The position numbers were made by a program, and so were the translations under genes. A model generated the notes under the pieces. That model ran no database searches, was not told the origin of the DNA, and worked only from the letters and a program-made list of their open reading frames with translations. A DNA stretch of 64,000 nucleotides from an uncultured Granulicella sp. (GTDB taxonomy: Bacteria > Acidobacteriota > Terriglobia > Terriglobales > Acidobacteriaceae), in assembly GCA_964282835.1 (NCBI GenBank), contig OZ196157.1, positions 60,600-124,599 on the forward strand, read 5' to 3'. Position 1 is the first letter of the stretch; each line of letters begins with the position of its first letter. Below, piece after piece: positions 1 through 62,996 of the stretch.

Positions 1-474
1 GCTTACCATAAACGTCATATGGACTGGATCGTAAAGACCTATCGGTCCATTCAGCGAAAGACCCTGATCTCGGTTGGTCTTGCCTGCGTTCTTTTGGCCT
101 CTTTTGGCCGGCCACTGATCAGGTTCTGGGCCGGAGACGCCGCGGTCCCAAGTCAGAGACTGCTCTGGCTCATGGCCGCCTTTGCCTTCGTGATGACGGT
201 CACTTCGACCCAGGCCCTTTTGCTCACGGCGACCGGCCGGCTGCACTTAGAAACCTCCGTGGCCGTCCTTGCGGCAGTTTCTAACCTTCTGCTCTCCATT
301 TGGCTGGTGCAGCGCATCGGGCCGGAAGGTGTCATCCTCTCCACGCTGCTTTCGTTCTTGGTTTTCATGCTCGTACCGCAGCAGTGGGAAGTGAATCGGG
401 TTTTAGCTGGAAGTTATCTGCCGCCACTTGATCTTGGCCCAGGGAAGATCACAATCCCCTACGGGACAGGGTAA
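1..474 (+). CDS. Wzx-type polysaccharide flippase (MOP superfamily), C-terminal fragment; 5' end lies outside the window
   Basis: The frame is open from nt 1. The hydrophobic multi-TM tail (LLLTATGRLHLETSVAVLAAVSNLLLSIWLVQRIGPEGVILSTLLSFLVFMLV) resembles O-antigen/EPS flippases. Neighbours are methyltransferase, Wzy-like and GT2 genes. Confidence 0.55.
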   Translation, partial: AYHKRHMDWIVKTYRSIQRKTLISVGLACVLLASFGRPLIRFWAGDAAVPSQRLLWLMAAFAFVMTVTSTQALLLTATGRLHLETSVAVLAAVSNLLLSIWLVQRIGPEGVILSTLLSFLVFMLVPQQWEVNRVLAGSYLPPLDLGPGKITIPYGTG

Positions 475-511
475 TACATCCATCTATTAAGTGATCTCAA
501 TGGTCAGGCGA

Positions 512-537
512 GCCTCTCCTTTAGAGAGGCGTTTTCC
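512..537 (+). terminator. Rho-independent terminator candidate downstream of the flippase gene
   Basis: GCCTCTC-cttta-GAGAGGC forms a perfect 7-bp stem (512-530), followed by GTTTTCC. Confidence 0.5.
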
Positions 538-627
538 TTAAGTCAAGCAGCGTTTGCCTATGTCGGAGGCCCCTCCCTGCTTTCCAGAATTATAAATAAG
601 CTGAGAGCGAAAGTAAGCTTTCGCCGC

Positions 628-1353
628 GTGGTCGGACTCTACCGCCGCCGCCTTTCACGAAAGGTCTTCGCCCTGTGTGGCGGCATGATCCATCAGGGAC
701 CGTTCGTTGGCATGCGGTGGCTGGATCACCCAGGCTGGGGAAGATCCGAGCAAGGCGCCATCGTGCTCGGCCTCTACGAACAGGAGGTCAGCCACCATCT
801 CACCAACGCTCCTGATCGTTACAGGGTCTTCGTCGATGTTGGGGCGGCGGACGGTTATTACGCTGTCGGACTTCTTTTCAATCGCACCGTGGATCGATGC
901 GTTGCCTTCGAGTCCATTCCTGAGTGCCGCGCCGCTATCGCGCGGCTCGCGGCCGAGAACCACGTATCCGACAAGATCACAGTCCTCGGCACCGCGTCCG
1001 ACCATTTGGTGGACACGCTTCGTGCACACGGGATCAAGTCGCCCGAGACGATGTTCCTTATCGACATAGAAGGTGCGGAATTCGAGTTACTTACGGAAGA
1101 AGTCTTTGCTTTCTTGAAGGACTCAATGATCATCGTCGAGACCCATGCTCACATCTATCTCCATCCCCAAGCAATGATCGAGCAAATGATTAAAGCTGCT
1201 TCGTCGACTCACCAGGTTTCGAGCTGGTACCCGGGTGCCCGCAACCCGTGGGTTCTCAAGGAGCTTGAAAGCTTCTCAGAGCTTGATCGATGGATCCTTT
1301 GCTCTGAAGGTCGCACCGAATTACAGCAGTGGCTGCGTTTTGATCCCTTGTAG
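628..1353 (+). CDS. FkbM-family SAM-dependent methyltransferase
   Basis: GTG start. Glycine-rich SAM motif VFVDVGAADGYYAVGLL, then VAFES and DIEGAEFELL, in the order seen in FkbM-type polysaccharide methyltransferases. Confidence 0.6.
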   Translation: MVGLYRRRLSRKVFALCGGMIHQGPFVGMRWLDHPGWGRSEQGAIVLGLYEQEVSHHLTNAPDRYRVFVDVGAADGYYAVGLLFNRTVDRCVAFESIPECRAAIARLAAENHVSDKITVLGTASDHLVDTLRAHGIKSPETMFLIDIEGAEFELLTEEVFAFLKDSMIIVETHAHIYLHPQAMIEQMIKAASSTHQVSSWYPGARNPWVLKELESFSELDRWILCSEGRTELQQWLRFDPL

Positions 1354-2569
1354 ACCCGTCCTCTCTAGGATCAATCAGGCCCAGCACAAAGATCAAACCA
1401 TAGCTCACAGCGGATAAGGAGGCAAGCAGATCAGGGTTAAAGAAAGCGGCTGCGATAAAATCCAGCAATAGAAGAAGGACCGCAGCCTGATAAGCGCGCT
1501 TTCCCCGACGCAGATCAAATGCCTTACGGTAAAAGTTGATGAGCAGACCTGCCAGCAAGCACATCCCAACAATGCCAAACTGCACCAATAAAGCGCCGAT
1601 CTGTACTTCATACACATACGGAGTATCGACCGAACGCTTGAGATTCAAGATGTAGCTGCCCATGCCATGCCCGAAGAGCGGCGCATCCCAGAAAAACTGT
1701 TTCAGACCCACAATCTGCCAGGTTCGTTCTATATCTGATGATCCAGCCAAAGCCGTAGAGAAACGGAGCGTGACCAGAGCAGAAAGGACGGGGAAAAAGT
1801 AGGCCGTCGCGGCCGCGCTGATAGAAAGATACAGAAGCACAATTTTGTCGCGACGAGCAATGAAAGATCCGAGCAGCGCGGCCAGCACCGTACTTATCCA
1901 GATAAATCTTGAGAACGTATATAAAGAAGAGAAACAGAGTAATGCCACGCATAAAACGGCAACGCCGCCACGGAGATGCAGACGCTTGCGCAAGCCAATG
2001 ATAGCGAACAGTGTGATTGGCAGCAGATTATCGGATGGAAACTGCAGTCGCCCGCCAGCTCCCTCCAGATCCAGCGCCATCAGCTTCACACCAAAAATTT
2101 TAGAGATCACGTCGACGAGGTCGACTACTGAGGCTCCTGTAATCAGCGAGTAGGTCAGCAGCAACACCTTGAGAAAGCTGCCGAAAGCAACCGTGTAGAT
2201 ACAGAGCCGAATAAACTTTTCACGATCAAGGAGCGTCGGAGTAAAAAGGCGGATGAAAAGACAGCCGGCCAGCGTAGTCAGAACGTCCTTGGCCTGAGAA
2301 AGCGCAAGCTCCGAATAGAAGGAATCGAGGAAGGAACGCAAAGTAGCGGCAATGACAAGACAACCACAGGCCGCCGCAAACGCGTATTGAGCAAGGGCTC
2401 TCTCTTCACTAGCTAACCGGTGCGCGGCAATCACCGCCAGTGGAACAAAAATCAGAATCTTGACATTAACGCCGTAGATGCTACCAGCGGGCAACAAAGC
2501 GAGCAGCACGATAAACAGACTGAACAGATTCCAGATTGTGGGGGAAATAGGAACATGGCGCATCTGCAT
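1256..2569 (-). CDS. O-antigen ligase/polymerase-like (Wzy_C-type) integral membrane protein
   Basis: Many hydrophobic helices and a loop with FWDAPLFGHGMGSY, typical of the Wzy_C/O-antigen ligase family. The 3' end overlaps the convergent methyltransferase gene by 98 nt. Confidence 0.65.
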   Translation of the reverse strand: MQMRHVPISPTIWNLFSLFIVLLALLPAGSIYGVNVKILIFVPLAVIAAHRLASEERALAQYAFAAACGCLVIAATLRSFLDSFYSELALSQAKDVLTTLAGCLFIRLFTPTLLDREKFIRLCIYTVAFGSFLKVLLLTYSLITGASVVDLVDVISKIFGVKLMALDLEGAGGRLQFPSDNLLPITLFAIIGLRKRLHLRGGVAVLCVALLCFSSLYTFSRFIWISTVLAALLGSFIARRDKIVLLYLSISAAATAYFFPVLSALVTLRFSTALAGSSDIERTWQIVGLKQFFWDAPLFGHGMGSYILNLKRSVDTPYVYEVQIGALLVQFGIVGMCLLAGLLINFYRKAFDLRRGKRAYQAAVLLLLLDFIAAAFFNPDLLASLSAVSYGLIFVLGLIDPREDGSTRDQNAATAVIRCDLQSKGSIDQALRSFQAP

Positions 2570-2911
2570 AGGTCATATAAGTTCACTTTGAGATTATCAG
2601 AGGCATCCAGCTCGTTGTTCCTCCAGGCGACCAATGAAGGCCTGGACGGATCAGGACCAAGCCGCTTCAGCCAGGCTGCCAACAGCCCGCAGTGAAGGTG
2701 ACGGGCTTGTCATTTCAAGTCGGAAACTAGGATTGAAAGAACGTGACGCTGACCACGGCAGCACGGTTCGAGACGCAGACCGCAACGATAAATGATGCTG
2801 ATTTGCGCGGGGGCACATCGCCACAGCGTCGACAGGACTGCCGTCGGCTTCCGTGCTGTGGCGTTTAGGGCACGGGTTTCTACAGCCATCTTCAGAGCGG
2901 GACGCGCTATT

Positions 2912-3961
2912 TTATGAAGAGGGCGCGCTGAGGTGAGACTGAGCCGTAAGATTTGCCTCGCGCTCATCCACCCAATAATGGGCTTGGGCGGAAAGCCTCT
3001 CTTTCATGCCCTGGGACAAAAGATGTTCATGACGGCCAAGCTGATAGCTGATCCATTTGCTCACGTTGCGCAGAGCTGCCTTCGGCAGAAGGGTCCACTG
3101 GTGTTCCATAAGGTAGCGCGCCTCTGACACCACAAACTTTCGTCCTTCTCCGCCCGCTTCCCCAAATGCCATCAGCAGCCAGTGTTCCCTTTGGTGATGG
3201 ACTCCAATATCGAAGTAACGCGAGAACTCTTGAGGAATCGTAAGAGAATGCGAATGAATTGCCGTCGCCTCGGCCTGATACGCCACTTTCCAGCCGGTCA
3301 TCAACATCCGCGCGGCCACCGTCACCTCCTCCGACACGATGGTGTTTCGCGGAAACCCCCCAACCTCCGTGAGCGCTGACCTGCGGTAAGCAGCAAAGCT
3401 GTTGGAGAAAAAAGCAGCCCTGAACCCGAGTTGCTTGCGGCTTTCGAAGCTACGCACCTCAGATGCGGCAGGGTAGTTGAACAACCGTGCATGCCTCTCG
3501 ATCGGGTCTGCTCCTGGCCGTGGAAGCTGGCGTCCGTAGCTGGCTCCCACCTCTGGCTGCGCAAACGGGGCAAGCAAATCTCTGAACGCGGTGGTGCCGG
3601 AAGGCACTGCGTCCTGGGTAAGGTAAATAAGAATCTCGGCTCTCGGGAGACATTCCGCGGCAAACTGTCGTGTAGCTCCATGCCGGAAGCTCTCGTGCGG
3701 GATCGTCTTCAACTGGTATCCGGCTCGTTCCACCAATTGCCGGGTACTATCGGTTGAGGAAGAGTCGATAATGAGCACCTGATCAGATGTGACGCCCTGC
3801 TGTTGCAAGGCAGTCTGCATGGCGTACCAGTGACGGCTTGCGTTATAAGTGGGAATGACAACCGCGGCCCGCAAGAGTAAGCTCTGTTGTGCTCTTGAAG
3901 TAGCGACCTCTTTTGCCACGCCATCGTCATGCTTCATACTCTGCAGATTCTCGACCCACAT
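2912..3961 (-). CDS. Family-2 glycosyltransferase (rhamnosyltransferase-like)
   Basis: AAVVIPTYNASRHW, LIIDSSSTDST and YLTQDA match the GT-A/GT2 motif set. The start could instead be the internal Met at about 3934. Confidence 0.75.
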   Translation of the reverse strand: MWVENLQSMKHDDGVAKEVATSRAQQSLLLRAAVVIPTYNASRHWYAMQTALQQQGVTSDQVLIIDSSSTDSTRQLVERAGYQLKTIPHESFRHGATRQFAAECLPRAEILIYLTQDAVPSGTTAFRDLLAPFAQPEVGASYGRQLPRPGADPIERHARLFNYPAASEVRSFESRKQLGFRAAFFSNSFAAYRRSALTEVGGFPRNTIVSEEVTVAARMLMTGWKVAYQAEATAIHSHSLTIPQEFSRYFDIGVHHQREHWLLMAFGEAGGEGRKFVVSEARYLMEHQWTLLPKAALRNVSKWISYQLGRHEHLLSQGMKERLSAQAHYWVDEREANLTAQSHLSAPSS

Positions 3962-4319
3962 ATATATCGGACCCTGTTGTTAAGCTGCTAAATTGCGAAA
4001 TTGCAAAGCCTCAAAAACTTAGGATAACGTTACTATAGTTTACTGTTTTAGGCGATTCTTTGAAAGATTGCTCGTTTTGAACCGGAGAAAAGCTGAATCG
4101 TTATCGGAGACATCGAGCGATAAAGCTGATGTCGTACGATGTCGCTTTTGCGGCCATTTCCGTCCAGCAGTCATCGACTTCGTTTCTGGCGCTTTTCAAT
4201 CTACGCCAGAGGGTGGCCGGCGTTTCTGGAAGTTCTTCAGCGTCAGCATTCGCAAACCCCAACATCCGCCACGCCTGCTTCAAAGCCATCCACGTATGCG
4301 CTGGTGTGTGAAGAAGGGT

Positions 4320-4700
4320 TAGGGGATCTAGCCGGAGTGACGCCAATGCAAGTTGCGGCGTATGTTAGGCAGCTCGGCCGTACGTACTCGCAAACCTGTC
4401 AAGCAACACCTCGCCGCACCCGCCGAGTTCAAGCGCGAGCTCATCCGCGAACGAAACCTTGACGGCCTACCGCAGCTCGCGCTCGAGGCCGCACCGGAGG
4501 ATGGCTGCCGAAGCTCTCACCCAAAGAGATCGAGACGATCCGCGCCCTGTTAAATCCTTGGAAATCCAGTGGTCGAGATCGTCGCCCGCTTCCATATCGC
4601 GCGCTCAAACCTCTCCTGCGCCATCCTCAAGCCTGCCTGTTGACCGCACAGGCCCTCTAAGCGGCTTTGAAGTTCCTCAGCGTACGTGAATTTTCTCTCT
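4320..4700 (+). pseudogene. Tyrosine recombinase/integrase remnant (frameshifted N-terminal and core-binding part)
   Basis: Pieces lie in three + frames: GVTPMQVAAYVRQLGRTYS, KPVKQHLAAPAEF, LPKLSPKEIETIRALL and SGRDRRPL. They resemble the SAM-like N-domain of phage-type integrases (..VKQHLAALR.., ..LS.EE...LL.., G.RDRAL). No intact ORF remains. Confidence 0.3.
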
Positions 4701-4789
4701 TGAACCGTCCCCAAGTACGCGAAAACCTTGCCTTGAAAAGCATCGGCCAGCATCAGCGCTGGCCAATATGGAAATGCTACGCTGCAAAG

Positions 4790-5540
4790 CGGGTACGGTA
4801 GCTCTCTGGCGGCGCAGTCCTCCTGCCAGTTGACGGTGACCTATACCTCGGAACTATCCGGCACGGATCATCTGACCGTGACGGTGCAGAACGGAACCGC
4901 CGGTGTGAACGTAACCACCCAGGTTGTGGTCACGGTGGGACCGAACGAACCGGTGACCCCGAAGATCGCCGACCTCGGCAGCGTGTCGATCGCAGGGGTA
5001 GGCGCAGCACGGCGACCCTGAACTTCACTCTTTATGGTCCGGTCTATAACACAACGCAGCAGTATATCGGCCTCTCCATCAGCGGGGCCAATGCGGGAGA
5101 TTTACCCGGTACCTTCGCCTGCAACACAGATAGCCGTCTCTCCGCAAACAACGATTCAGACGGATTATGCAAGTTGGTACGAGGCCTGGGGCGCGGGTAC
5201 CGTGCCCTACCTTCAACTGTCCAAGACACCACCGCCGAGCGCTTTTGCCGAGCCTTCGATTCTCCCCAGTTACGGGCGCGGCGTCTGGTAGATCTGGCCA
5301 ACGGCGCGATCCAAGAGCGAAGATACGATCTGCCGAAGCGAATCTTAAACAAGCGCAGGCGCTGGACGACAACGCGCGCGACCTTTGGGGAAGATTTAGC
5401 CGTGGACATGCACCACGGCGATCAGAGGGAGGCAATGCGTCTCTACGCAAAAGAAAGCGGAGTTGCATCCGGGAGCCGACTTCGCCTATCGCAATCTGGC
5501 CCGTCTCGAAGACGTGGCTCGGTCTTGCTTCCCGCGTCCA
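4790..5540 (+). pseudogene. Coding debris: Ig-like/choice-of-anchor-type fragment followed by a TPR-like fragment
   Basis: SCQLTVTYTSELSGTDHLTVTVQNGTAGVNVTTQVVVTVG and TATLNFTLYGPVYNTTQQYIGLSISGANAGDLPGTFACNT lie in different frames. They are followed by AEANLKQAQALDDNARDLW and GDQREAMRLYAK..ADFAYRNLARLEDV. There are multiple frame breaks and no start. Confidence 0.25.
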
Positions 5541-5697
5541 GGTTGACCCACCGGAATCTGCAACGCTTCCGCGACGAGTCGTCACGACGGACTCGAACGC
5601 CAGCCGGCTGGCGAACGTGGAATGTCCTCGACAATGTGGGAACCGGCGTGATCGCCGCAGCCACATCCGCCTTATTCCTTCACCGCTTAGTCCAGCT

Positions 5698-8600
5698 TCA
5701 CTCCAAGCCAGTGACGTCTATGATTGCGAGGCTGAGATTACGCACCCGGACGATGGGCTGCGTGTTGTTGCTAAGTGAGGAGAATGCGGAGAGGTCGAAG
5801 TAGAGGCAACCCCCCAAGCGCGAAGGTGAATCTGTCGCGAACCAGTTCGCGACCTCGCCGGCTACGTTCGCGATGTAAATGTCGGCCCGCGTCACCGGGC
5901 CGGTGTTCGCAGTGAGGCTGGTCTGCCAACTCGCTGGGATCTGGAAATCCGACGCAGGATAGAGCAGCACGGGCATCTCAATTGCTGGCAGGGCGGCCGT
6001 TTCGGCGAGCCGGTAGGCGTAGCGCACTTCAAGCTTCACGATCTGGGTCTTGGCCGGGCTGTCCGCAAAGAAGGTCGAAAAGAGAGCGGTCAAGTGACCA
6101 TTCAGGGTGCGCTTCTCGGTCGTCCCGCTGGGGACCTGCGCCACATCGATGGTTGCGGCAGTATCGAGCAACGGTGTGAGCTTATTGCGGAACTGCACCT
6201 CGGGCGTAGTGTAGATGAAGGGTCTGCGAGTCGGGTTCGCCGTACCCACGAGGTCTGCGTTGCGTGTGATCTGGATGCCCGACCAGGCGTTCTGGTACTG
6301 GGTGACGTCAAGCTGAGCAATCTCCGCGGTACGCTGCGGGATGAGTTGCGCTTCGTCCCAGCCGAGGTAGAGATCCTGGCCGGGCTGGGGATTGATGCGC
6401 TTATAAAGCCAAGCCTTGCGCTCGATGGTGGGCGCGGCATCTCCCATGCGGTGTGCGGTGGCGAGCAGTCCGGCACGGACATCCTCGTGCGCGTTGCCGC
6501 GCTGCCGGCCGCGAATGCTTTGCTGCAGCAACTCGCGCGACGCGCTGGCGTCCGGATCGGTCGGTTCGGCGGTGAAGCCGTCGAAGAGTATGCCCGGAGC
6601 CGCGATCCCTTTGGGGAGCGGAACGGTGTAGGCGATGACGACGCGCAGCCGCATGATTTCATCAACGGAGCCGCTGCTCACCGTCACTGCATCTTCAAGG
6701 ACCGAGAACGGCACGTCCTCCTTGGTGGCCGTAAGCAGCGCGTCCTCGGCACCGGCCTGGCGCGCGGTCCACAGCTTCCATTGCGCGGCAAGGTTGCCGA
6801 GCAGGAAGCCAAGTGCGCTCAAGGCGTTGCGCGACCGCACGAAGTCACCAGCAGTCGTCGCCGTAGCTACGTGGATGCCGAGCAGGTCCCTGGCAAAAAC
6901 GGCTTGCAGGTCCGGGAGAACGAAGTTAAGCCGCGCCAGCAGGACGAAGAGGTCGGGCTCTTCGACTGTGAAAGCAGAGAGCTGCGCCGTCTGCGGCACG
7001 TTGAAGCGCACCACAGCGTCGATGCGGTTCTGCAGGGCGTGCACCTGCGCGTAGAAGAAGCGGAAAGCCCATTGCTTGGCGGCCTTGAGGTTGGCGGTCT
7101 GGTCGGTGCCGATCGGCGTAGGAACGAAATCCTGGTTGAGCAACGTCGGCGCGGCGGGGTACGCCCGCAGCGGAATGGGGATTTCCACCGCGATCGACGA
7201 CTCGCCGGTGGTCAAAGCGAGCGGCGCGGGCGGGTCGATGAAGTTGAGGCAGGAGGATGCCTCATAGCCATCCATGGCGGCCAGCGCTTCAACTGCATGC
7301 TCGATGTGCGTGGGCCGATACTGGAACGGCACCTTGAAGCTGGACTGCTGGCTCGCGTCGCGAGCAGCGAAGGTAAACGTCAGCAGCGGGTTTGTGGGTT
7401 CGAGCGGAATCTTGAACGAACTGGCCGTATAGTCCGCAGCGTTTTCGACCTGGGTCGGGTCGACGGGGTTGCCGTAGTAGTGTGGCGGTATGGCCGGGGC
7501 GGTTGTGGCCGGGGCCGCAACCTGCAGTTCGTACTGGACGACGGCATCGATAGCGTATGCATTGGCCAGCTTGATGAGCAGCTGCTGCTTCAGCTTGTCG
7601 CGGGCAGCCTGGAAGTTCGCAGGTTTGCTCGTCGTGGTGATCGCCGGCTCGCTCAGGATGTTGGTCATGCCGGTAACGATCGCGTCGGCCAACAGGCGCT
7701 TCGCGAGCAGGATCTGCGCCAGGTACGACGTGCCGCCGATGGAATCGACCAGAAAGGCCGGCACGGCATATTGCGGCTGCAGCACAGTGTCGATCGTCGC
7801 CAGCGCATTAGCCGCCCACAGGTCTAGATCGATGCCGGTATAGGTCTGGGTCTGGTCTGGCGTGGCGCTCAGCCCCTGCTCCGGGGTAAAGGTGTAGAGC
7901 GTGACGTTCGGCCGATTTTGCAACTCGGTAGAAAGCGGCGCAACCGCAAAAAAGATGGCGGGATTCTTGATGGTGACGGCATATGGCTCGGTAGCGGTCT
8001 TGCCCAGGCGTACCGCCCAAAGGGTATCGGCTCCTCCCTGGCCGCCGAGGTCCGCACGCGGCGTCCCGGAGGCCAGCCGCAGCGAGGACGAGGCCTGCTG
8101 GAAGGCGGCTTCGAAGCTGCGCGTGTACTCATCGAGCGTGTAGCCGGTGGTCTGGTTGGGCTTGCTCAGGCGCGGCGCAATGACGCTTTCCGCCAGGCGC
8201 GAGGCGGCGTTGTCGCGGAACTCCGGCAAGACGCCGCTGATCTCGCGCTCCAGGCGTACGGAAACCAGGATCTCGACAATCGTCTGGCCGGCGGCTGGCG
8301 TGATGGAGCGCGCGAGATCGACGTTCTGCGGCAGGTTGGTAGCCGGAGGGGTGGCTTTGGTGCGGTAGACCGTATCCACATAGCGCCAGGCGGCGAGCAC
8401 ATAGGCGACGATGGCCGTGCGTTCGGCGGCCGTCACGCGCACGGGCGTATCGCCGGCGAGCGTACAGACGGTCGAAACATGCAGCAAGTCGCTGCCGTCG
8501 CGCACGGTCTGGACCATCTGGTAGTAGAGCAGGGCGAACACCTGGCGGTCGGCCTCGGCGTTGGGCAGCCAGCCCTGGTCGCCGGCGGACTGCGGGACGT

Positions 8601-14890: not shown

Positions 14891-17017
14891 ATGCGAGCTT
14901 TACTCCGTTCGACTCTCTTCTCTGCAGTCTCCTGTGCGGCTCTACTGCTTTCCGGCTGCTCGAACAGTTTCGACCCCACGCAGGGCGATAACCCGGAAAC
15001 ATCGACCATGAGCATGCAGGGCGAAGTGTTTGGCGGCTTCTTTCCCGTAAGCGGTGCCCGCGTATTCCTTTTCTCGCCCGGCACAAGCGGCGTGGGCGGC
15101 GCGTCGACCTCGCTGATCAGCGCAAGCACGACCGGATCCGCGATCGACAGCACGAGCGGCTCGATTACGTATGGCGCACGCTATGTGCTGACGGACTCCA
15201 AGGGCGGGTTCACCTTCACGTCGACCTGCACGTCGGGTCGCTACGTTTACCTCTATGCCTCGGGCGGCGTGGCCACCACGGGCGGCGCGAATAATCCCCA
15301 GATCGGCCTGATGTCGGTCGTCGGCGAGTGCCCGGGTACGGACACAGTCGACGCGACGCCCTATGTCCGCATCACGGAAAACACGACGGTGGCGGCAGCC
15401 TATGCGCTGGCCGGTTTTGCGACCGACCCGGGCCACATCAGCTATACCGGCACCTCGCTCGGCCTGGTGGGGCTTGGCAATGCGTTCGGCACGGCGACCA
15501 ATCTGTTCAACCAGCTGGTGGCGGTGGACAGCGCCTCATCTATCAACGGGTTCCCCGCCGTTACGACCACCCCGAGCAGCACGGGCACGATCCCGCAGAC
15601 GCTGCTGAATACGTTGTCGAACATCCTGGTGGCGTGCGTCAACTCAGGCAACAGCGCTTCTGCGACGACTACGGGCTGCGACAACCTGCGGAAGTATGCC
15701 ACCAGCGATGGCGCGGTCGGCACGGGGTCGACGGCTCCTGCCACAGGCAGCTTTAGTGCGGACGCACCGGCCGATACGGCCACGGCGATGATCAATATCG
15801 CGCACCATCCGTTCGCGAATCTCACGAGTCTCTTTAACCTGCAGGGTACCGGCGCCGGCGAGGTGTACAAACCGGCTCTCGGGGCCGCACCCACGAGCTT
15901 TATGGTCGAGGTAAGTTATACGGGCGGCGGGGTGAGCTCCGACACGGCCCAGACCAACAATCACCGCATCGCCATCGACGGCGTGGGGAACGTCTGGTTC
16001 CCAAATACGTTTAACTCAAATGTCAGCAAGTTCAGCCCCCTGGGCATCCCGCTTTCGGGCAACAATGGTTTTACATCGACGAACGGCAGCTGCCCACTTG
16101 GCGGTCCTGGCGGCAGCGGCTCCAGCACCTATGTCGGCCCGATCGCCATCGATCTTTCCGGCAATGCCTGGATCGGGTTTACCGACGCTTCAAATTCCAT
16201 CTGCGAACTCGATCCGACAGGGGGCACAGTCTTCGCGTCATCGCCGGGCGCCGCAGACGGGACTCAAAACTATTTTGGAGTGATCGATATTGCCTTCGAC
16301 TCGGCAGGAAATGCCTGGGCGGCCGACAGCGCCGCCAACTCAGAGAGCGGCGCGCTCTACGAATACAGTGGTACAAACCACACGCTGCTGGTCACGGAAA
16401 ATGGCAACAGCCAAGCGATTTCCTACGGGGTGGCCATTGACGCGCCCAACTCGAACTCGGGACATACGGGTGATATCTGGGTTGCGGATGCCGCTGCAAC
16501 TTACGACAGTGTTTTCAACGCCACAGGCGGCACGGCAAGCTTTTCTCCTGCGTCGGCGGGATCCATTTCCTATTCGACGGGACTCGCCATCGACGCCAGC
16601 GGCAACGTGTGGAATATGTCATCCAGCAGTAACTTTCCCGTTGGAGGGTATCTCAGTAAGACGAACGCGACGGGAACCTCGGGGACGTCCTACACGTTTC
16701 CTTCGATCGACAACGGATTCGCAATCGCGATTGATGGCGCGGGGAATATCTGGATCAGCAACGATGACGAGGGGAACTACATCGATATCGCGGAAGTGAG
16801 CAATAGCGGAGCCTTGCTCACGCCCGCCGCCGGCTTTATTCCTTCCGGTCCGGCAACAGTGGGGGGAGCCCGCTCGCTCGCCATCGACGGCTCCGGGAAT
16901 GTCTGGTATCCGATGGCAGGCGTTGCCCAGTTGAGAGAGTTGGTGGGTGCCGCCGTTCCGGTCGCGACTCCCATTGCCTACGGGACGGCGAACAACAAAC
17001 TAGGTGCGCGGCCGTAA
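14891..17017 (+). CDS. NHL-repeat beta-propeller lipoprotein (paralogue B)
   Basis: The ATG at 14891 gives MRALLRSTLFSAVSCAALLLSGCS (signal peptide plus lipobox); the longer listed ORF from 14822 would abut the divergent gene. Blades GNVWFPN, GNAWIGF, GNAWAADS, GDIWVADA, GNVWNMSS, GNIWISNDD, GNVWYPMAG. The central segment is collinear with paralogue A. Confidence 0.75.
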   Translation: MRALLRSTLFSAVSCAALLLSGCSNSFDPTQGDNPETSTMSMQGEVFGGFFPVSGARVFLFSPGTSGVGGASTSLISASTTGSAIDSTSGSITYGARYVLTDSKGGFTFTSTCTSGRYVYLYASGGVATTGGANNPQIGLMSVVGECPGTDTVDATPYVRITENTTVAAAYALAGFATDPGHISYTGTSLGLVGLGNAFGTATNLFNQLVAVDSASSINGFPAVTTTPSSTGTIPQTLLNTLSNILVACVNSGNSASATTTGCDNLRKYATSDGAVGTGSTAPATGSFSADAPADTATAMINIAHHPFANLTSLFNLQGTGAGEVYKPALGAAPTSFMVEVSYTGGGVSSDTAQTNNHRIAIDGVGNVWFPNTFNSNVSKFSPLGIPLSGNNGFTSTNGSCPLGGPGGSGSSTYVGPIAIDLSGNAWIGFTDASNSICELDPTGGTVFASSPGAADGTQNYFGVIDIAFDSAGNAWAADSAANSESGALYEYSGTNHTLLVTENGNSQAISYGVAIDAPNSNSGHTGDIWVADAAATYDSVFNATGGTASFSPASAGSISYSTGLAIDASGNVWNMSSSSNFPVGGYLSKTNATGTSGTSYTFPSIDNGFAIAIDGAGNIWISNDDEGNYIDIAEVSNSGALLTPAAGFIPSGPATVGGARSLAIDGSGNVWYPMAGVAQLRELVGAAVPVATPIAYGTANNKLGARP

Positions 17018-17037
17018 ACGCTTTCGAGCCAAGGAAA

Positions 17038-17058
17038 TGGCCCCTAGTCTGGGGGCCA
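17038..17058. terminator. Hairpin between convergent genes (possible bidirectional terminator)
   Basis: TGGCCCC-tagtctg-GGGGCCA forms a 7-bp stem in the 70-nt gap between the NHL gene stop (17017) and the tail-collar gene stop (17088). There is no strong U-tract. Confidence 0.35.
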
Positions 17059-17087
17059 CTCCGTTGGACAAATGGCAGCACGGGCGT

Positions 17088-17639
17088 TTACTGGCGCGGT
17101 GGGAAGAGGCCCTGAACGGCAATGCAATACTGCAAGGCCAGATAGGGTGACTGGTTGCTATGTGGTTGGCTGCCGCCTGCCACTCCGGCTTCTGCGGCGG
17201 CCATGGTGACGGCGCTGGAGGATTGAGTAGCCGGGCTGGCATAGACCGGAGGAGCGGGCTGGCGGATTCCTGTGCTCGGCCCAGCGGAAAGATATGACGT
17301 GGGCGAGGGTAGCGTATTGGGAACACCCGGGGACCCGGCGGGCATGGTGTGGACGTGAGCGGGCATCTGCTGGAGCGTGAGCGTCACATTCGTGGTGCCG
17401 ACCGTGACTCCCATTGGGTAATTGGAACCCCCGGTCAGTTGTCCCTGGCCGAGCGCGGCGGCGCCGCTCAGGTTTGGCAGGGCGAAGGTCGTTCTGCCGT
17501 CTCCTCCGAACTGAGTGCCGAGCAAGGAATACAAGGCTGAAAATTGCGAAATGGCCATGACCGCGCCGTTGCAGGCGGCCCAGCCTTGCGGCACGAAAGT
17601 ACAGGCGAACAAACGAATTTCTCCAAGGAACGGATCCAT
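17088..17639 (-). CDS. Phage tail-collar domain protein (MdpB-like), copy 3 of 3
   Basis: MDPFLGEIRLFACTFVPQGWAACNG...FSALYSLLGTQFGGDGRTTFALPNLSG and the C-terminal GGSQPHSNQSPYLALQYCIAVQGLFP match the collar-domain signature. Confidence 0.8.
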   Translation of the reverse strand: MDPFLGEIRLFACTFVPQGWAACNGAVMAISQFSALYSLLGTQFGGDGRTTFALPNLSGAAALGQGQLTGGSNYPMGVTVGTTNVTLTLQQMPAHVHTMPAGSPGVPNTLPSPTSYLSAGPSTGIRQPAPPVYASPATQSSSAVTMAAAEAGVAGGSQPHSNQSPYLALQYCIAVQGLFPPRQ

Positions 17640-17662
17640 CTGGAACTCCTTACCTTCTCGGT

Positions 17663-18181
17663 TTAGTTGCGGGTGGGAAAGATGCCGACGATCGCAATGC
17701 AGTATTGCACCGCAAGGTACGGCTGGAGATTCGAGTGGGGCTGGCTGCCACCTGAACTCGAAGAGCCGCTGTCGAGCATGGTGTTGGCCGAGGTGGCATA
17801 GAGTGGGTAGGTCGACGGCGCCGCCGGGTAATTAGCCTGCGGCGAGCCGGTGAGATTGGTCGTCGTGGACTGATTCGACGCCGCCACGGGATGATTGTGC
17901 ATGGGAATTTGCGTGGTCAGGAGGGTTACATTCTCTGTGCCCGCCTGCTGCCCCGGCGTGTAGTTGCCCCACGCGGAGTTCCCCGTGCCGACAGGAACCC
18001 GGCCCTGCAGGTTGGGAAGTCCGAAGGTGGTCGAGCCATTGCCGCCGTAGGTGGTTCCGAGCAGCGAAAACAAAGCCTGATACTGGTTGACCGCAAGCAG
18101 TTGACCGTTGCACGGCAGCCAGCCTTTGGGCACGAGGCCGAAGGCGAATACCGAGATCTGACTCATATAAGGTGTGCTCAT
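17663..18181 (-). CDS. Phage tail-collar domain protein (MdpB-like), copy 2 of 3
   Basis: ISVFAFGLVPKGWLPCNGQLLAVNQYQALFSLLGTTYGGNGSTTFGLPNLQG and GGSQPHSNLQPYLAVQYCIAIVGIFP. Lies 23 nt upstream of copy 3. Confidence 0.8.
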   Translation of the reverse strand: MSTPYMSQISVFAFGLVPKGWLPCNGQLLAVNQYQALFSLLGTTYGGNGSTTFGLPNLQGRVPVGTGNSAWGNYTPGQQAGTENVTLLTTQIPMHNHPVAASNQSTTTNLTGSPQANYPAAPSTYPLYATSANTMLDSGSSSSGGSQPHSNLQPYLAVQYCIAIVGIFPTRN

Positions 18182-18192
18182 GGTGTCTTCTC

Positions 18193-18702
18193 CTAGCCTT
18201 GGCTCGGGTAAATGCCCACGAGGGCAATGATGTAGTTGACTACAAGCGAGGGCATGCGATTCTCATGCGCCTGGTTTCCACCGACGGGGGTAAGCAGCGG
18301 CGCGGTGATGAGCGTGCCGGAGGGGCCGAACTGCGCCAGGCTCGACGCGCTGAAGACATTGCCGGCCGGACTCTGTTGCCCTCCCATGGCGTTTTGCGCC
18401 GCGATGGTGTGATTGTGCGACGGCAGCTGCGAGGAGCTCAGCGTAACGGACTCCGAGCCCGCGGCCTGACCCGCATAGTAAGGAGAAAGCCCCGGGCCAT
18501 TCCCGGCGTTGACGGCCATACGGCCATTCAGGTTAGGAAGGGCGAAGGTTTGGACGCCATCGCCCCCGTAGGTGGTCCCGATGAGGTTGAACAAGGTCGC
18601 ATATTGATCGATGGGAAGAAATTGTCCGTTGCACAAGGCCCACCCCGGGGGTGGGAAGTTAAAGCCGGCGGCACGTATTTCGCCGATGAATGGATCTGCC
18701 AT
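18193..18702 (-). CDS. Phage tail-collar domain protein (MdpB-like), copy 1 of 3
   Basis: MADPFIGEIRAAGFNFPPPGWALCNGQFLPIDQYATLFNLIGTTYGGDGVQTFALPNLNG and GGNQAHENRMPSLVVNYIIALVGIYP. AGGAGA precedes the ATG. Lies 11 nt upstream of copy 2. Confidence 0.8.
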   Translation of the reverse strand: MADPFIGEIRAAGFNFPPPGWALCNGQFLPIDQYATLFNLIGTTYGGDGVQTFALPNLNGRMAVNAGNGPGLSPYYAGQAAGSESVTLSSSQLPSHNHTIAAQNAMGGQQSPAGNVFSASSLAQFGPSGTLITAPLLTPVGGNQAHENRMPSLVVNYIIALVGIYPSQG

Positions 18703-19384: not shown

Positions 19385-20366
19385 GCGACATAGCTCCTGT
19401 GACTTTGACTCGACATTGCGCGGAATGAAGTCCTGACCGGCTTGCTACTGCCGGTCGAGACCTGCTGGGTAAACGTGCCGGCGGCCGTGAGCTCGGTGAT
19501 CGAGCTGTTGCCGGAGTTGGCGTCCAGATGTTGCCGGGCACGTCGATGGCTGCCGGCGCGCTGATGGTGCCGTTGCCCGCAAACGGCGAGCCGGTGTAGG
19601 GCGAACGTAACTGTTGAACGCGGAACCGAGCTGCCGCCGGCGTTGGCGACCCAGGCATTGCCGCCCTGGTCGATCGCGACCGCGGCCGGCGCATTCAGGC
19701 CGTTTCCCGTAAATGGCGAGTCGAAAGCGGCTTGCCCATCTGCGTGAGCACCGAGACCGAGTTGCCGCTTGAGTTCGCCACCCAGATATTGCCGGCGGCG
19801 TCGACCGTGGTCGAGGCAGGCTTGCTGAAGCCGGCTGCGGAGTAGGTAATGGCGAGCATCCAGTCGGCTGGTGCGGAAGTCAGCTGCGGCGCGAAGGGCG
19901 CCGACGGCGTGGTCGTGTTGTAGATCGCCGCCACGTTTAGGATCGGGTTATGCGCGATGCTGAGCGCGCCTGCACGGTGTCGGTTGGCGCCGTGCCGCCA
20001 GCTGAGGTCGCCAGGCTGAACAGCGTCCCGCATGCGGTGGAGTCGCCGGCGGTGCCGCCGGTCGAGTTGATGCACGCCGCAAGAATGTCTGCCAGGGTCA
20101 CAATCTCGCTCACAGGCCCGACTGCGCCCGCCGGAAGCGCGCTGCCCATAGCCGCGCCCGTCCCCACGTTGACCAGCTTGTTTACCGACGCGAACGCGTG
20201 CGTCAGCCCGGTCGTGTTGGCCGCAGACGAGCCCAGGGCGGCGATGCTGCTCATAAACGGTGCGCGCGCGAACACGCTGCCAACCGTCGTAATCTCGTTC
20301 ATGCCTAAGCATGGGGTTTTCAGCACCTGACAACCTTTGCAATTACCCGTCTCGAGATCAATGTTT
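19381..20366 (-). pseudogene. 5'-truncated, multiply frameshifted NHL-lipoprotein paralogue (paralogue C)
   Basis: Collinear with paralogues A and B but split over at least four frames: GNCKGCQVLKTPCLGMNEITTVGSVFARAPF...NTTGLTHAFASVNKL...ACINSTGGTAGDSTACGTLF / ..ADWMLAITYSAAGFSKPASTTVDAAGNIWVANSSGNSVSVL / SPFTGNGLNAPAAVAIDQGGNAWVANAGGSS / GNIW..ANSGNSSITELTAAGTF. The signal peptide and N-terminal domain are missing. Confidence 0.7.
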
Positions 20367-26578: not shown

Positions 26579-27946
26579 TTACGAACGTGGCAAACGAAAC
26601 GTCACGATGGTGCCGCTTCCTAACTCGCTCTCCAACGCGATCGTGCCGTTGTACCGCTCGACAAGGCATTTTGCGATCGCCAAACCGAGACCAGAACCTT
26701 CGCGGCTTGCGCTGCGCGCGGTATCCACGCGAAAGAACCGGTCAAAGACCTTGTCCCGATGCTCTGGGGCGATGCCAAGGCCTGTGTCGGACACGCTGAC
26801 CTGCAACGAATGCCGCATTGTGTAAGAGATCGAGATGCTTCCACCTAGGGGAGTGTATTTGATGGCGTTGTCGAGCAGGATTCCCAACAGGCGGCGAAGG
26901 TCGGCCTCGTGAACCAGCAGCGTAGGACCTTCGCCGTTGGGGAGGATCGCATGAAGAGTTTGTCCGCGTTGCTCTGCCAACGGACGAAACCGGTCGCAGA
27001 CGTCGACGATCGCCTGGCCTACCGATGTTCTGCGCGTAGTCGGCAGGTTGTGAGCTGCGTCGGCGCGGGCAAGCTTTAGCAGGTCTTCGAGCAGCGCGGC
27101 AGTGTCCGTTGTTTCATCGAGGATCGCTTGCAGGGCGTCCCGGGCTTCTTCAGAAAGATGGCCGTGCAAAAGGCTGTCCTGCGCGGTGGCACGGATGAAG
27201 GCTATGGGGCTGCGGAGCTCATGCGAGGCGTCGGCGGTGAATTGCTCTACACGCCTAAGCGAGACCTCGATGCGGGCGAGCAGGTTGTTCCACTCGAGTG
27301 CCAGCCGTTTTAGCTCGTCGTCCGCCGCGGGGATGGGGAGCCGCTGGGTAAGATCCTTCGCGGTCATCGAGCGTGCCTTGGTGACCAGCACGTCAACCGG
27401 CCGCAAGGAACGTCTGCTTAGCGTATAACCGGCCAGGCTCGATACGATCAGCATCAACGACGCCATCTGGATCAACCGCGTGGTAAGCACACGTGACAGG
27501 ATCTGGTCCTCAAGCAGCGAGCTTGGAACGAGCAGATACGCGGCCCGGCCGTTATAGCGCAGCGGGCTGCAGAGAACGCGAAAGTAGCTTTTGCCCACAA
27601 GAACATTGCTGATCGAAGTGCGCTCGCAGGGCTTGACCGAAAGCGCAAGCAGATTGCCTTCCGCCGCCGGGAAGAGGCGTGCCCCCTGGCTGTCACGAAT
27701 TTCGATCAACTCACCTTCAGGCAGGATGCCTACCAACTCGTCAAGCCTCAGCGCGAGTTGTGCCGACAAAGTCGATTCTGCCACGGAGCGAACGCGCGAC
27801 GCCCGCATCTCAAGCGTCCGGTCCTTCCATGACAAGACCGAACTGCCCAGCGCGAACCACATTACATAACCGCAGAGAAAAATGCCGACAAACGAGATGC
27901 CGGTGTACCAGATGGCAAGTCTCAGGCTGATGGAAAGACTGCGCAC
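26579..27946 (-). CDS. Two-component sensor histidine kinase (HAMP-HisKA-HATPase_c)
   Basis: Two N-terminal TM segments. H-box FTADASHELRSPIAFIRA, N-box LLDNAIKYT, G-boxes DTGLGI and GSGLGLAIAK. The GTG start overlaps the regulator stop (TGAGTG). Confidence 0.85.
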   Translation of the reverse strand: MRSLSISLRLAIWYTGISFVGIFLCGYVMWFALGSSVLSWKDRTLEMRASRVRSVAESTLSAQLALRLDELVGILPEGELIEIRDSQGARLFPAAEGNLLALSVKPCERTSISNVLVGKSYFRVLCSPLRYNGRAAYLLVPSSLLEDQILSRVLTTRLIQMASLMLIVSSLAGYTLSRRSLRPVDVLVTKARSMTAKDLTQRLPIPAADDELKRLALEWNNLLARIEVSLRRVEQFTADASHELRSPIAFIRATAQDSLLHGHLSEEARDALQAILDETTDTAALLEDLLKLARADAAHNLPTTRRTSVGQAIVDVCDRFRPLAEQRGQTLHAILPNGEGPTLLVHEADLRRLLGILLDNAIKYTPLGGSISISYTMRHSLQVSVSDTGLGIAPEHRDKVFDRFFRVDTARSASREGSGLGLAIAKCLVERYNGTIALESELGSGTIVTFRLPRS

Positions 27947-28624
27947 TCAGGCCGCCACCATCTTGAGCGTGTACCCCACGCCACGCACTGTATGCAGAAG
28001 CGCAGGCTGCCGCGCGAACTGAATCTTGTTTCGCAATGCGCGCATGAAGACGTAGAGCGTGTCGTCGCTTACGTCCGCGTCGCCACTCCAGCCAACGCGG
28101 ATCAGTTCCTCTTTGGTCACCACGAGGCCCGCGCGCTGCATGAGAGTCTCCATCAAAGCCAGCTCGGTGGGCGTCAGGGCGATTGCCTCGCCATCACACT
28201 CCAACGCGTGTGTATCGCGGCGTAAGGTAAGCCCGCCCACGTCCAGCCGGCAATCCAGCAGTAAGGGGCTACGCCGGGTGAGGGCGCGAAGGCGGGCCAG
28301 AAGCACAGCCATCTCGAAGGGCTTGGTCAAGTAGTCGTCTGCGCCGAGGTCCAGCCCGTGCACCACATCCTGGCTTGTATCCCGGGCGGTAAGCAGGATG
28401 GTCGGCACTCTTCCGTTGTCCTGCCGCATACGGCTCAGCACCTCGAAGCCGCTGAGTTTCGGCAGCATTACATCCAGCACAATGGCATGCAGGTGGTAAT
28501 TCGAGATGGCCTCAAGCGCGGCTTGCCCGTCGTGAACCAACACGGTCAGATATCCCTCGCGACGAATCGCCTTCTCGAGCAGCGCAGCCATTCGCATACG
28601 GTCCTCGGCGATAAGAATGCGCAT
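27947..28624 (-). CDS. OmpR/PhoB-family response regulator
   Basis: Start at MRILIAEDRMRMAALLEKAI. Receiver Asp context AIVLDVMLP. Winged-helix tail LTPTELALMETL...VRGVGYTL. Confidence 0.85.
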   Translation of the reverse strand: MRILIAEDRMRMAALLEKAIRREGYLTVLVHDGQAALEAISNYHLHAIVLDVMLPKLSGFEVLSRMRQDNGRVPTILLTARDTSQDVVHGLDLGADDYLTKPFEMAVLLARLRALTRRSPLLLDCRLDVGGLTLRRDTHALECDGEAIALTPTELALMETLMQRAGLVVTKEELIRVGWSGDADVSDDTLYVFMRALRNKIQFARQPALLHTVRGVGYTLKMVAA

Positions 28625-36494: not shown

Positions 36495-37568
36495 CTACTG
36501 ATCATTGTGTGTCACACGTTCGACCATGTGGAACAGGGTTTGCATCTGCGGCCCCGATTTTACGGCGTAGTCTGGATCGTTTAGATAACCCCACCAGTTC
36601 CAGCAGCCTTGTGCATTGCTCCCGGTTGCATTCGTTGCAACAGCTTGAGGGTACAAGACTATTGTGTGATTCGTGTCCGCCCATTGATTCACTCCCGAGT
36701 TGTTGATGAATGTCAGGCCAACGGCACTATAAGACTGTTGGCAGCCATGCAGTACAAGCACTAGCGCGCACTTGGTACCCGTAGCGCAATCTTGCGGAAC
36801 GTACACATAGCCCATACTGTCCATGCTGAGCGCGGCCGCGCTGCCACCGGGGGCGAACTCATTCTGGTTGAAGGACAAGAGCGAGCCCTTGAGGATACCG
36901 TTGTTCTTCGGCATAAGCGGTCCTAGCCAACGCGTCAACCATATCTGCTCAGAGTCGTAGGGCTGTGACTCACTGGGTCCGGACGCGCCACTCTGGGTGT
37001 TATCAGCTTTGGAGCATGTAACCAGGTAGGGACTGCCGGCTTGGGGGCAAAGGTTTGGTCCGTAGGGTGACTCCCAACCATGCGCGGCGAGGTAGGAATG
37101 GTCGTAGTGAAAGACGCTTGCTCCTAGAGATTCGTACTGCGTCTTGAGCGCATCCACCAGCGGTTGACGCACGTTGGTATCGAGCAGCCCTGACCACAGG
37201 TAAACCGGACTGCCTTTCAGATTCCCAAGGGGATCGATGAGGCCCTGCTCCGCCCAGCCCCTGACAACGGAAGTTAGAGTTTCAGCGTCGACTGGCGGAA
37301 CGTTGGCGATACAGGTGGTGAGCGCGTTGGCCAGGCTGTCCTGAGCACAATCGTCCGGACCACCGGCATAGATGGCCGCACCATGAAACGTCCTGGAGTA
37401 GGCAACATGCATCTGCACGGCCATGAAGGCCCCGGAGGAGATGCCGGCCACGTAAACGCGGTCAGAAGCGACGTTGTATGTTTGAAGCGCCTGACCGCGA
37501 GCGGCCTGAGAACCCAGGCCGGCCATTGCCACAGCCAGAATAGATGCGAGTCGACTGATGTTGTACAT
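36495..37568 (-). CDS. phaZ: Extracellular short-chain-length PHA (PHB) depolymerase, type-2 (permuted) catalytic domain
   Basis: Start at MYNISRLASILAVAMAGLGSQAARG (signal peptide). The lipase box VYVAGISSGAF is near the N-terminus. The oxyanion/LHGC segment ALVLVLHGCQQS...VLYPQ...AQGCWNWWGY is near the C-terminus. This is the esterase_phb motif set in type-2 order. Confidence 0.65.
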   Translation of the reverse strand: MYNISRLASILAVAMAGLGSQAARGQALQTYNVASDRVYVAGISSGAFMAVQMHVAYSRTFHGAAIYAGGPDDCAQDSLANALTTCIANVPPVDAETLTSVVRGWAEQGLIDPLGNLKGSPVYLWSGLLDTNVRQPLVDALKTQYESLGASVFHYDHSYLAAHGWESPYGPNLCPQAGSPYLVTCSKADNTQSGASGPSESQPYDSEQIWLTRWLGPLMPKNNGILKGSLLSFNQNEFAPGGSAAALSMDSMGYVYVPQDCATGTKCALVLVLHGCQQSYSAVGLTFINNSGVNQWADTNHTIVLYPQAVATNATGSNAQGCWNWWGYLNDPDYAVKSGPQMQTLFHMVERVTHNDQ

Positions 37569-37602
37569 ATGATCCTTCCAGAGGCAATGGTTGAGAGCGC
37601 CA

Positions 37603-37672
37603 CACATCGCAACGAGCAGACGCTCATAAAACGAGCGCCCGATTTATACTTGGTTCAGCCTAAAATTGTCAA
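37603..37672 (-). promoter_or_regulatory. Sigma-70-type promoter (TTGACA-N18-TATAAA) with downstream operator-like inverted repeat, upstream of phaZ and divergent from the TetR gene
   Basis: On the minus strand: -35 TTGACA (37672-37667), 18-nt spacer, -10 TATAAA (37648-37643), then CGCTC-N7-GAGCG (37637-37621). A near-identical copy lies at 46943-47010. Confidence 0.6.
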
Positions 37673-62868: not shown

Positions 62869-62996
62869 GGGTGACGCTCCACCCGTGTTGCAGAACACGG
62901 GTTAAAGCGATTGTACGGGGCGGGGCTCTGCCGGCAGAGCTTTTCATCGCCCGGTCCAGCAACGTAGTTGTGGCGTAGCAGGGCCTGCGCGTTCTT

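Follow-up and report, generated by a model that had tools for sequence, protein, structure and literature searches.

The 64,000-nucleotide stretch of contig OZ196157.1 analysed here, which comes from an uncultured Granulicella sp. and is called the window below, carries on its minus strand, at 5698..12801, one uninterrupted open reading frame (ORF) of 2,367 codons. This ORF is best explained as a beheaded gene remnant, derived from a widespread and uncharacterised family of giant LysM proteins, a reading to which we give a probability of about 0.8. A deletion or replacement would have taken the gene of a partner protein, an enzyme slot and the first ~1,020 codons of the giant gene, including two-thirds of its amphipathic core; the next ~40 codons would have been left as an out-of-frame relic with two frameshifts, and an internal ATG would open the remaining 2,367 codons. 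The features concerned are:

5698..12801, minus strand: putative giant-LysM remnant ORF of 2,367 codons, which represents the 3' ~69% of a gene of the giant LysM family, is collinear with the relative P0003 over residues ~1,063-3,452 and runs to the normal family C-terminus.
12802..12923, minus strand: putative out-of-frame relic of the conserved core, seen by three-frame translation against homologues and in collinear tblastn high-scoring segment pairs (HSPs).
12924..12968, no strand: putative truncation junction; 45 nt separate the end of family homology (~12923) from the NHL gene's stop codon (12969-12971).

An original prediction made from the DNA of this window had described the ORF as real coding sequence for an intact, orphan megaprotein. 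The first part of this description stands, given that the 2,367-aa product, starting MIKGVIAIWHPYD and ending DVTGLE, is encoded in a single open frame whose GC content at the three codon positions (0.63, 0.49 and 0.82) is a clear coding signature; the plus-strand ORFs of 577 and 758 aa lying within it are shadows of a GC-rich gene. Intactness did not withstand comparison with the relatives, since the ORF is 5'-truncated and spans residue ~1,063 to the end of proteins of 3,350-4,100 aa. Using BLASTP, residue 1 of the ORF product was placed at residue 1,063 of P0003 (3,452 aa) and at residue 1,078 of P0008 (3,357 aa), with 51-52% identity over the whole ORF and up to the C-termini of both relatives. 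The product is collinear with P0002-P0010 at 100% query coverage and 49-58% identity, the alignment reaching their last residues, and phmmer showed 900-1,600 residues preceding ORF residue ~45 in every full-length homologue (45 or more).

Conservation in the family alignment is highest in a block that straddles the start of the ORF and takes in the sequence just ahead of it. The consensus of this core reads ...IYTNGNF.VDFGFP...GSGGFYFG...GTF.PVIEFG.G.QVG.GK.I..GIL.AG.S.TVFGI.EGV.A.W.PY...YYY...GT.GIIGKLYG.VDFAIIKA..., and its motifs IYTNGNF, GSGGFYFG and PVIEFG.G.QVG.GK do not occur in the ORF frame, in which only the last four core strands are read. The PVIEF/GLSLQVGWGK part of the core is legible out of frame upstream of the ATG, and the core further upstream is absent from the window. 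The relic comprises the segments DPTSGTFLPVIEF at 12923-12885 and GLSLQVGWGKTINFAILSAGIS at 12883-12818, 3' of which the core continuation VTIVGMIKGVIAIWHPYD ('VTIVGMIKGV...') reads in the ORF frame, with frameshifts near 12884 and 12817. A tblastn search recovered three collinear relic HSPs in three frames with linked E values of 2e-10 to 4e-9. Because family homology extends 5' of the ATG in two other frames, this codon, opposite which the relatives have an Ile or Val, is a fortuitous internal codon of a disrupted gene. The N-terminal ~1,070 aa of the family, whose members carry 500-1,600 aa ahead of the core, are absent across the window, as judged from tblastn with four N-terminal regions, which gave no match at E <= 0.01. 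These sequences suggest that the gene was decapitated, that the stump later took two frameshifts and that the present start is an internal codon. Ahead of the ATG we found no sigma-70-like promoter, terminator or obvious Shine-Dalgarno sequence; with no terminator separating it from the NHL gene, the ORF may be transcribed by read-through from that gene.

An assembly or sequencing artefact in a gene that is really full length would call for errors of a kind that are known to occur, given that single-base indels are frequent in long-read assemblies and that the two frameshifts lie at most 70 nt apart. Base errors cannot account for the missing ~3.2 kb and partner gene, the place of which is occupied by the NHL gene, and the junction is repeated identically in an independently assembled sister strain, with zero indel differences over 12655-14822; we therefore consider an artefact extremely unlikely. 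The sister protein P0001 (2,366 aa) is 98% identical to the ORF product in an unchanged gene order, and the protein cluster of the ORF product has members from three contigs. A simple duplication of the NHL gene was also considered as the origin of the junction and was rejected, the NHL pseudogene at 19695-20254 being only a ~40% paralogue of that gene.

The ORF is no orphan. A word-indexed search returned 56 homologues of its product, the well-covered matches other than P0001 being 3,350-4,100 aa long, and a filter-free HMMER search with the LysM-free C-terminal 1,190 aa gave 995 clusters at 50% identity, 498 of them at E <= 1e-30. Most of these clusters consist of proteins of 3,000-4,300 aa with the matching region at their C-terminal end. 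Shorter entries have scattered starts, as in fragments from metagenomic contigs, and a conserved short isoform of the family was rejected on this ground; complete open frames of 2,440-2,870 aa do exist in some subfamilies and still include the core. The family occurs in Actinomycetota, Proteobacteria, Bacteroidota, Ignavibacteriota, Cyanobacteria and Gemmatimonadota, in sources that are mostly soil. With LysM excepted, neither the giants nor their partner (see below) have a family in Pfam, NCBIfam, PHROGs or PADLOC or a solved structure, and no description of either was found in the literature searched. A scan of genome contigs with the ORF product alone retrieved only LysM look-alikes (L007 and L008). 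A phage origin was rejected, since the three IMG/VR contigs that hold the cassette show it beside integrase and transposase fragments and have no virion genes. Likewise, a role as a defence system was rejected, since no PADLOC model matched the ORF product, the EEP-like enzyme, the small protein of the cassette or a full-length relative; of two partner proteins scanned, one gave a weak AbiEii match (E = 0.008, 13 bits), which was taken as chance.

The gene context of the family was assessed in 87 loci, comprising the contexts of seven relatives, which include Aurantimonas endophytica, Kitasatospora kazusensis and a Kapaibacterium metagenome-assembled genome, and 80 further metagenomic loci, all searched with seeds. 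Intact giants end a co-oriented cassette in which a protein of ~1,130-1,230 aa, often preceded by one or two small beta-rich proteins, is followed often by a protein of 370-470 aa and then by the giant. The ~1,200-aa partner gene lies immediately upstream in all 62 loci with at least 4.5 kb of sequence upstream of the giant frame, and it is co-oriented with the giant in 74 of 75 copies. The window has no partner gene within its 64 kb. A partner search gave 43 homologues (26-61% identity, all annotated 'hypothetical') from sources that include Mucilaginibacter, Massilia, Filimonas, Actinomadura, Leptolyngbya and Actinocrinis. The partner profile has no match in the PDB, and descent of the partner from a diverged paralogue of the giant's N-terminus was rejected at an hhalign probability of 0.1%.

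The slot between partner and giant is polymorphic and may hold an endonuclease/exonuclease/phosphatase (EEP)-like gene, a metallo-beta-lactamase (MBL)-fold gene, another gene or nothing, which is reminiscent of a cargo or effector slot. EEP-like genes are present in 31/87 loci and a second, divergent EEP cluster in 7 (~36 loci overall); MBL-fold genes fill the slot in 7/87 and a gene for a protein of 541-622 aa without assignment in 5/87, and the Kitasatospora slot contains an unrelated 345-aa gene. The EEP assignment of the middle gene is weak: it displays the hallmarks WNIE (N-terminal), GDFN and SDH (C-terminal), its profile matches sphingomyelinase C at E = 1e-4 with DNase I and nocturnin weaker, and one variant cluster reaches 22.8 bits with Pfam Exo_endo_phos, just below the cut-off. 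Another variant cluster matches Lactamase_B.

Could the 5' part of the gene and the partner have moved elsewhere in the genome, so that a split system still works in trans? The ORF has stayed open with a dN/dS of 0.33, all the family-invariant residues of the retained part are kept, and the region is prone to rearrangement, with an IS481 element at the junction in a related strain. Against a split, none of the 43 homologues returned by the partner search, an indirect probe of the rest of the genome, is on contigs of the window genome or of the sister strain, no natural split form occurs among the 87 loci, and the break falls inside the beta-sheet core and is accompanied by two frameshifts, which indicates decay and not a clean division. 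We regard a functional split as unlikely.

The same loci bear on the neighbourhood proposed in the original prediction, in which an autonomous envelope or exported megaprotein acts with the adjacent NHL lipoprotein and a triplet of Collar genes as one system. The distances reported there are correct (167 nt from the NHL gene to the ORF and 4.3 kb from the ORF to the collar triplet), the NHL gene and the ORF are co-oriented with no terminator between them, this arrangement is repeated in the sister strain, and Collar homology lies within 10 kb of a family cassette in two other loci, L010 and L053. Nevertheless, NHL genes are found in 0/87 related loci, the 669-aa neighbour that separates NHL and collar genes in 0/87 and Collar genes in 2/87, and the conserved neighbours of the family are different genes, so that the neighbourhoods of the orthologues are unrelated to the one in the window, an outcome that the original prediction itself had named as refuting it. 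Moreover, the ORF lacks the first ~1,070 aa of its full-length relatives and has out-of-frame family sequence 5' of its ATG, no signal peptide is present in its product, and the block is missing from a third strain. An envelope-anchored or exported product finds no backing at family level either, as no family member or partner examined has a signal peptide or transmembrane anchor. It is thus very unlikely that the ORF encodes an intact megaprotein of such a system; the NHL gene and collar triplet are chance neighbours of the remnant, and both the annotation and the system hypothesis are corrected accordingly. At the Kapaibacterium locus L010, a similar Collar triplet (26882-28601) with a DUF6916 gene lies 5.5 kb from an intact cassette, which is also adjoined by a chitinase gene, and in L053 Collar homology lies downstream of the cassette (16725-17252); this co-occurrence at 2/87 loci is probably due to chance.

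The architecture of the remnant protein was predicted with AlphaFold2 (AF2) using 21-row family alignments in two tiles, aa 1-1190 and aa 1178-2367, which gave a predicted local distance difference test (pLDDT) score of 77 and 79, respectively. The parts distinguished were:

12397..12642 (aa 54-135), minus strand: four predicted amphipathic beta-strands of 17-18 residues each (AF2, pLDDT 60-70), the surviving last third of the conserved core.
10942..11376 (aa ~476-620), minus strand: LysM block 1, three beta-alpha-alpha-beta modules (Pfam LysM and LysM3_LYK4_5, AF2, Foldseek 4uz2/5k2l, profile matches).
9235..9657 (aa ~1049-1189), minus strand: LysM block 2, three modules (Pfam, PDB, AF2, Foldseek; best Pfam stretch aa 1096-1139).
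5701..9234, minus strand: C-terminal ~1,180 aa, a chain of beta-sandwich and helical domains predicted with confidence (AF2, pLDDT 79), with no recognisable relative.

Besides the four long strands, which agree with the beta-rich N-terminus noticed earlier, the N-terminal tile shows a disordered head (aa 1-53), an alpha/beta domain (aa ~180-440) and mixed domains (aa ~620-1050). The two LysM-like blocks described in the original prediction were recovered as two triplets of modules. LysM is the only Pfam family matched by the ORF product (44.6 bits against a cut-off of 20.9, in two stretches), the family profile finds only LysM structures among PDB sequences (1e-6), and the Foldseek match of the AF2 model to 5k2l has a TM-score (TM) of 0.87 and a root-mean-square deviation of 1.4 Å over 48 columns. 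Block 2 has a variable occupancy in the family alignment (0.56-0.77). The modules are probably of the type that binds N-acetylglucosamine (GlcNAc) glycans or peptidoglycan.

Searches of the ORF product in NCBIfam, PHROGs, PADLOC and PDB sequences gave nothing beyond LysM-type matches, the PHROGs match being a LysM-type endolysin only (E = 0.0025). In agreement with the earlier description, regular expressions detected no Walker A, HExxH, RTX GGxGxD, YD or collagen-like motif in the product; RHS/YD, RTX and cadherin/Ig-repeat adhesin repeats were absent by regular expression and Pfam, and there was no signal peptide or consistent transmembrane helix. The C-terminal ~1,180 aa, said earlier to be unplaceable, indeed match no curated family or solved structure: they carry family-invariant motifs such as NPYAG...W.D..GN, and their tile gave no meaningful Foldseek match in the PDB or BFVD, only strings of beta-sandwiches (A2ML1, integrins and fibronectin-type phage proteins) at TM < 0.1 in a whole-tile search that is blunt on multidomain models. 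No full-length match was obtained to a characterised family such as Tc toxin A, a phage or extracellular contractile injection system (eCIS) protein or a known adhesin. The suggestion of an undescribed system thus keeps its ground for the family, which no curated library or solved structure covers, and loses it for the truncated, partner-less copy in the window.

Comparison with known systems was made for the family as a whole. Beta-alpha-alpha-beta modules are common to the giants and to LysM proteins (PF01476) such as a Thermus NlpC/P60 endopeptidase (4uz2), a Volvox chitinase (5k2l) and Ecp6 (4b8v). The known LysM proteins are secreted hydrolases, receptors and effectors that carry a signal peptide and are a few hundred residues long, whereas the giants have 3,000-4,300 aa, no signal peptide, an obligatory ~1,200-aa partner and six modules in two triplets that make up only ~12% of the protein. 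The likeness to Tc (ABC) toxins is one of organisation only, and lies in large soluble proteins without signal peptides, a co-oriented cassette, a variable enzyme and an island-like scatter across phyla. The ORF and its family show no Pfam or NCBIfam match to VRP1, TcA, TcB or RHS and no PDB sequence, profile or fold match to TcA; LysM modules are not known as a feature of Tc toxins. As for phage or eCIS tape-measure and baseplate proteins, Foldseek against BFVD gave TM <= 0.1, and the IMG/VR loci have no phage structural genes.

In the family alignment, period-2 beta amphipathicity is strongest in the core, where 15% of the length takes in 58% of the windows that rank in the top 5%. The core consists of long, strongly amphipathic beta-hairpins (17-18 residues), and the top Foldseek PDB matches found with the N-terminal tile are the hairpins that gasdermin, MAC/MACPF and CDC proteins insert into the membrane in their pore state; these matches are marginal (E = 1.5e-3 to 5e-2, the best at 1.5e-3, TM 0.2-0.26, pLDDT 60-70) and concern the hairpins only, the family having no MACPF or gasdermin globular domain. 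In cytolethal distending toxin the EEP-fold nuclease CdtB is carried by lectin-like subunits. The family resembles this arrangement in that ~36/87 loci have an EEP-fold gene between genes for carbohydrate-binding or large carriers, and differs from it in its unrelated carriers, the weak EEP assignment and the absence of the enzyme gene from the window. By analogy, the intact cassette would resemble Tc toxins and cytolethal distending toxin in logic, and not in sequence or fold.

With low confidence, we propose that the intact cassette makes a soluble complex that is released without the Sec pathway and combines a pore or translocon with an enzyme payload; Sec-independent release is proposed because no family member has a signal peptide. 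In such an intact system, GlcNAc polymers (peptidoglycan or chitin) would serve as the docking site for the six LysM modules, oligomers of the amphipathic hairpin core would insert to form a pore or translocon, and the variable EEP or MBL enzyme would act as payload or carry out a processing step. It is a doubtful but conceivable extension that the family represents a novel class of Sec-independent toxin or lysis complexes with several components, namely the giant, its partner, small beta-rich proteins and a polymorphic EEP/MBL phosphodiesterase. After docking on peptidoglycan or chitin, such a complex would open a pore or translocon of the beta-barrel type; the window copy would then be a decayed example whose LysM-bearing rear is maybe kept for another use. 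We infer that the ancestral function of the cassette is impossible for this truncated copy without a partner.

To assess whether the remnant is still constrained, the window was compared with the sister strain, to which it is 98.5% identical at the nucleotide level over 22.8 kb. The ORF has accumulated 46.7 synonymous and 43.3 non-synonymous differences, where ~134 non-synonymous ones are expected under neutrality, giving the dN/dS of 0.33 cited above; the values for neighbouring intact genes are 0-0.35. One in-frame 3-nt indel and zero frameshifts separate the two copies over 7.1 kb, and the adjacent non-genic stretches (3962-5697 and 19.3-22.8 kb), in which the single-base indels between the strains cluster, show 14 indels in 5.2 kb. 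In Tajima relative-rate tests, unique amino-acid changes were 1.4-2.0 times more numerous in the window lineage than in P0002, its closest relative (317 against 173 with P0003 as outgroup; p = 1e-4 to 1e-13 across outgroups). Our reading is that constraint on the remnant is relaxed and not abolished, and that the remnant is probably translated still. We put at slightly better than even the chance that its product is still made and of some weak use in binding glycans, and at slightly less than even the chance that it is inert.

Several points weigh against the explanation by truncation and decay. A frame of 2,367 codons with a dN/dS of 0.33 and no frameshift is unlike a long-dead pseudogene, and the fragment may have a function of its own; because the substitutions between strains are patchy, the apparent constraint is perhaps partly due to recombination. 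The partner-bearing loci (62/62) were found via patterns derived from the core, to which natural core-less forms are invisible, and the mechanism draws on weak structural matches (E ~1e-3, TM 0.2-0.26, pLDDT 60-70) and analogy.

The remnant leads to a large uncharacterised family of ~1,000 clusters, in which giants are strictly paired with a ~1,200-aa protein and accompanied by a polymorphic hydrolase slot. At family level it is far from every known kind of system, and at window level we are dealing with a decayed example. Cultured carriers allow experiments, with the giant available in Aurantimonas endophytica, Aurantimonas sp. HBX-1 and Kitasatospora kazusensis and the partner in Massilia, Mucilaginibacter and Actinomadura. 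The remnant itself is a small natural experiment on which part of a giant persists under constraint when core and partner are gone.

With respect to its genomic setting, the ORF lies in a block from ~5.1 to ~22 kb with a GC content of 0.60-0.68, against 0.54-0.58 on either side. A third strain (L094) is collinear with window positions 1-5101 at 90-95% identity and then continues with an IS481 transposase (L094 7310-8290) and unrelated genes (hopanoid and others), and has none of the ORF block. Because of this GC step and the divergence of the third strain after 5101, we place the ORF within a strain-variable, debris-edged island.

Upstream of the ORF, the NHL-repeat gene (12969-14819/14892, minus strand) differs from its sister copy by a 1-nt indel at 14822 and encodes 616 aa in the window and 640 aa in the sister strain; because this indel shifts the N-terminus, the start of the presumed NHL lipoprotein is uncertain in one of the two strains. 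Between it and the collar triplet lies a gene of 669-731 aa, absent from the original prediction, on the plus strand (15008-17017; longest ORF from 14822) with weak SGL, SBBP and PorZ beta-propeller matches, which is considered real because its dN/dS against the sister strain is 0.18 and which, being on the opposite strand, interrupts the supposed co-orientation from NHL to collar genes. The Collar-domain (PF07484) triplet (17088-18702, minus strand) encodes proteins of ~170-183 aa each, and the NHL-repeat pseudogene at 19695-20254 (minus strand) has two internal stops in the window and is a 186-aa ORF in the sister strain.

Beside the island, window positions 1-4000 hold an exopolysaccharide-type locus with a Wzy/O-antigen-ligase-like gene (1256-2569) and a GT2 glycosyltransferase gene (2912-3961), beyond which the sister locus L002 has polysaccharide-synthesis/MatE-type, GNVR and GT4 genes. 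Further away, the window contains two ordinary chromosomal genes on the minus strand that are unrelated to the ORF, one for an extracellular type-2 short-chain polyhydroxyalkanoate depolymerase (36495-37607; NCBIfam 318 bits, over the cut-off) and one for a large UPF0182/PRK00068-type membrane protein (59980-62898).

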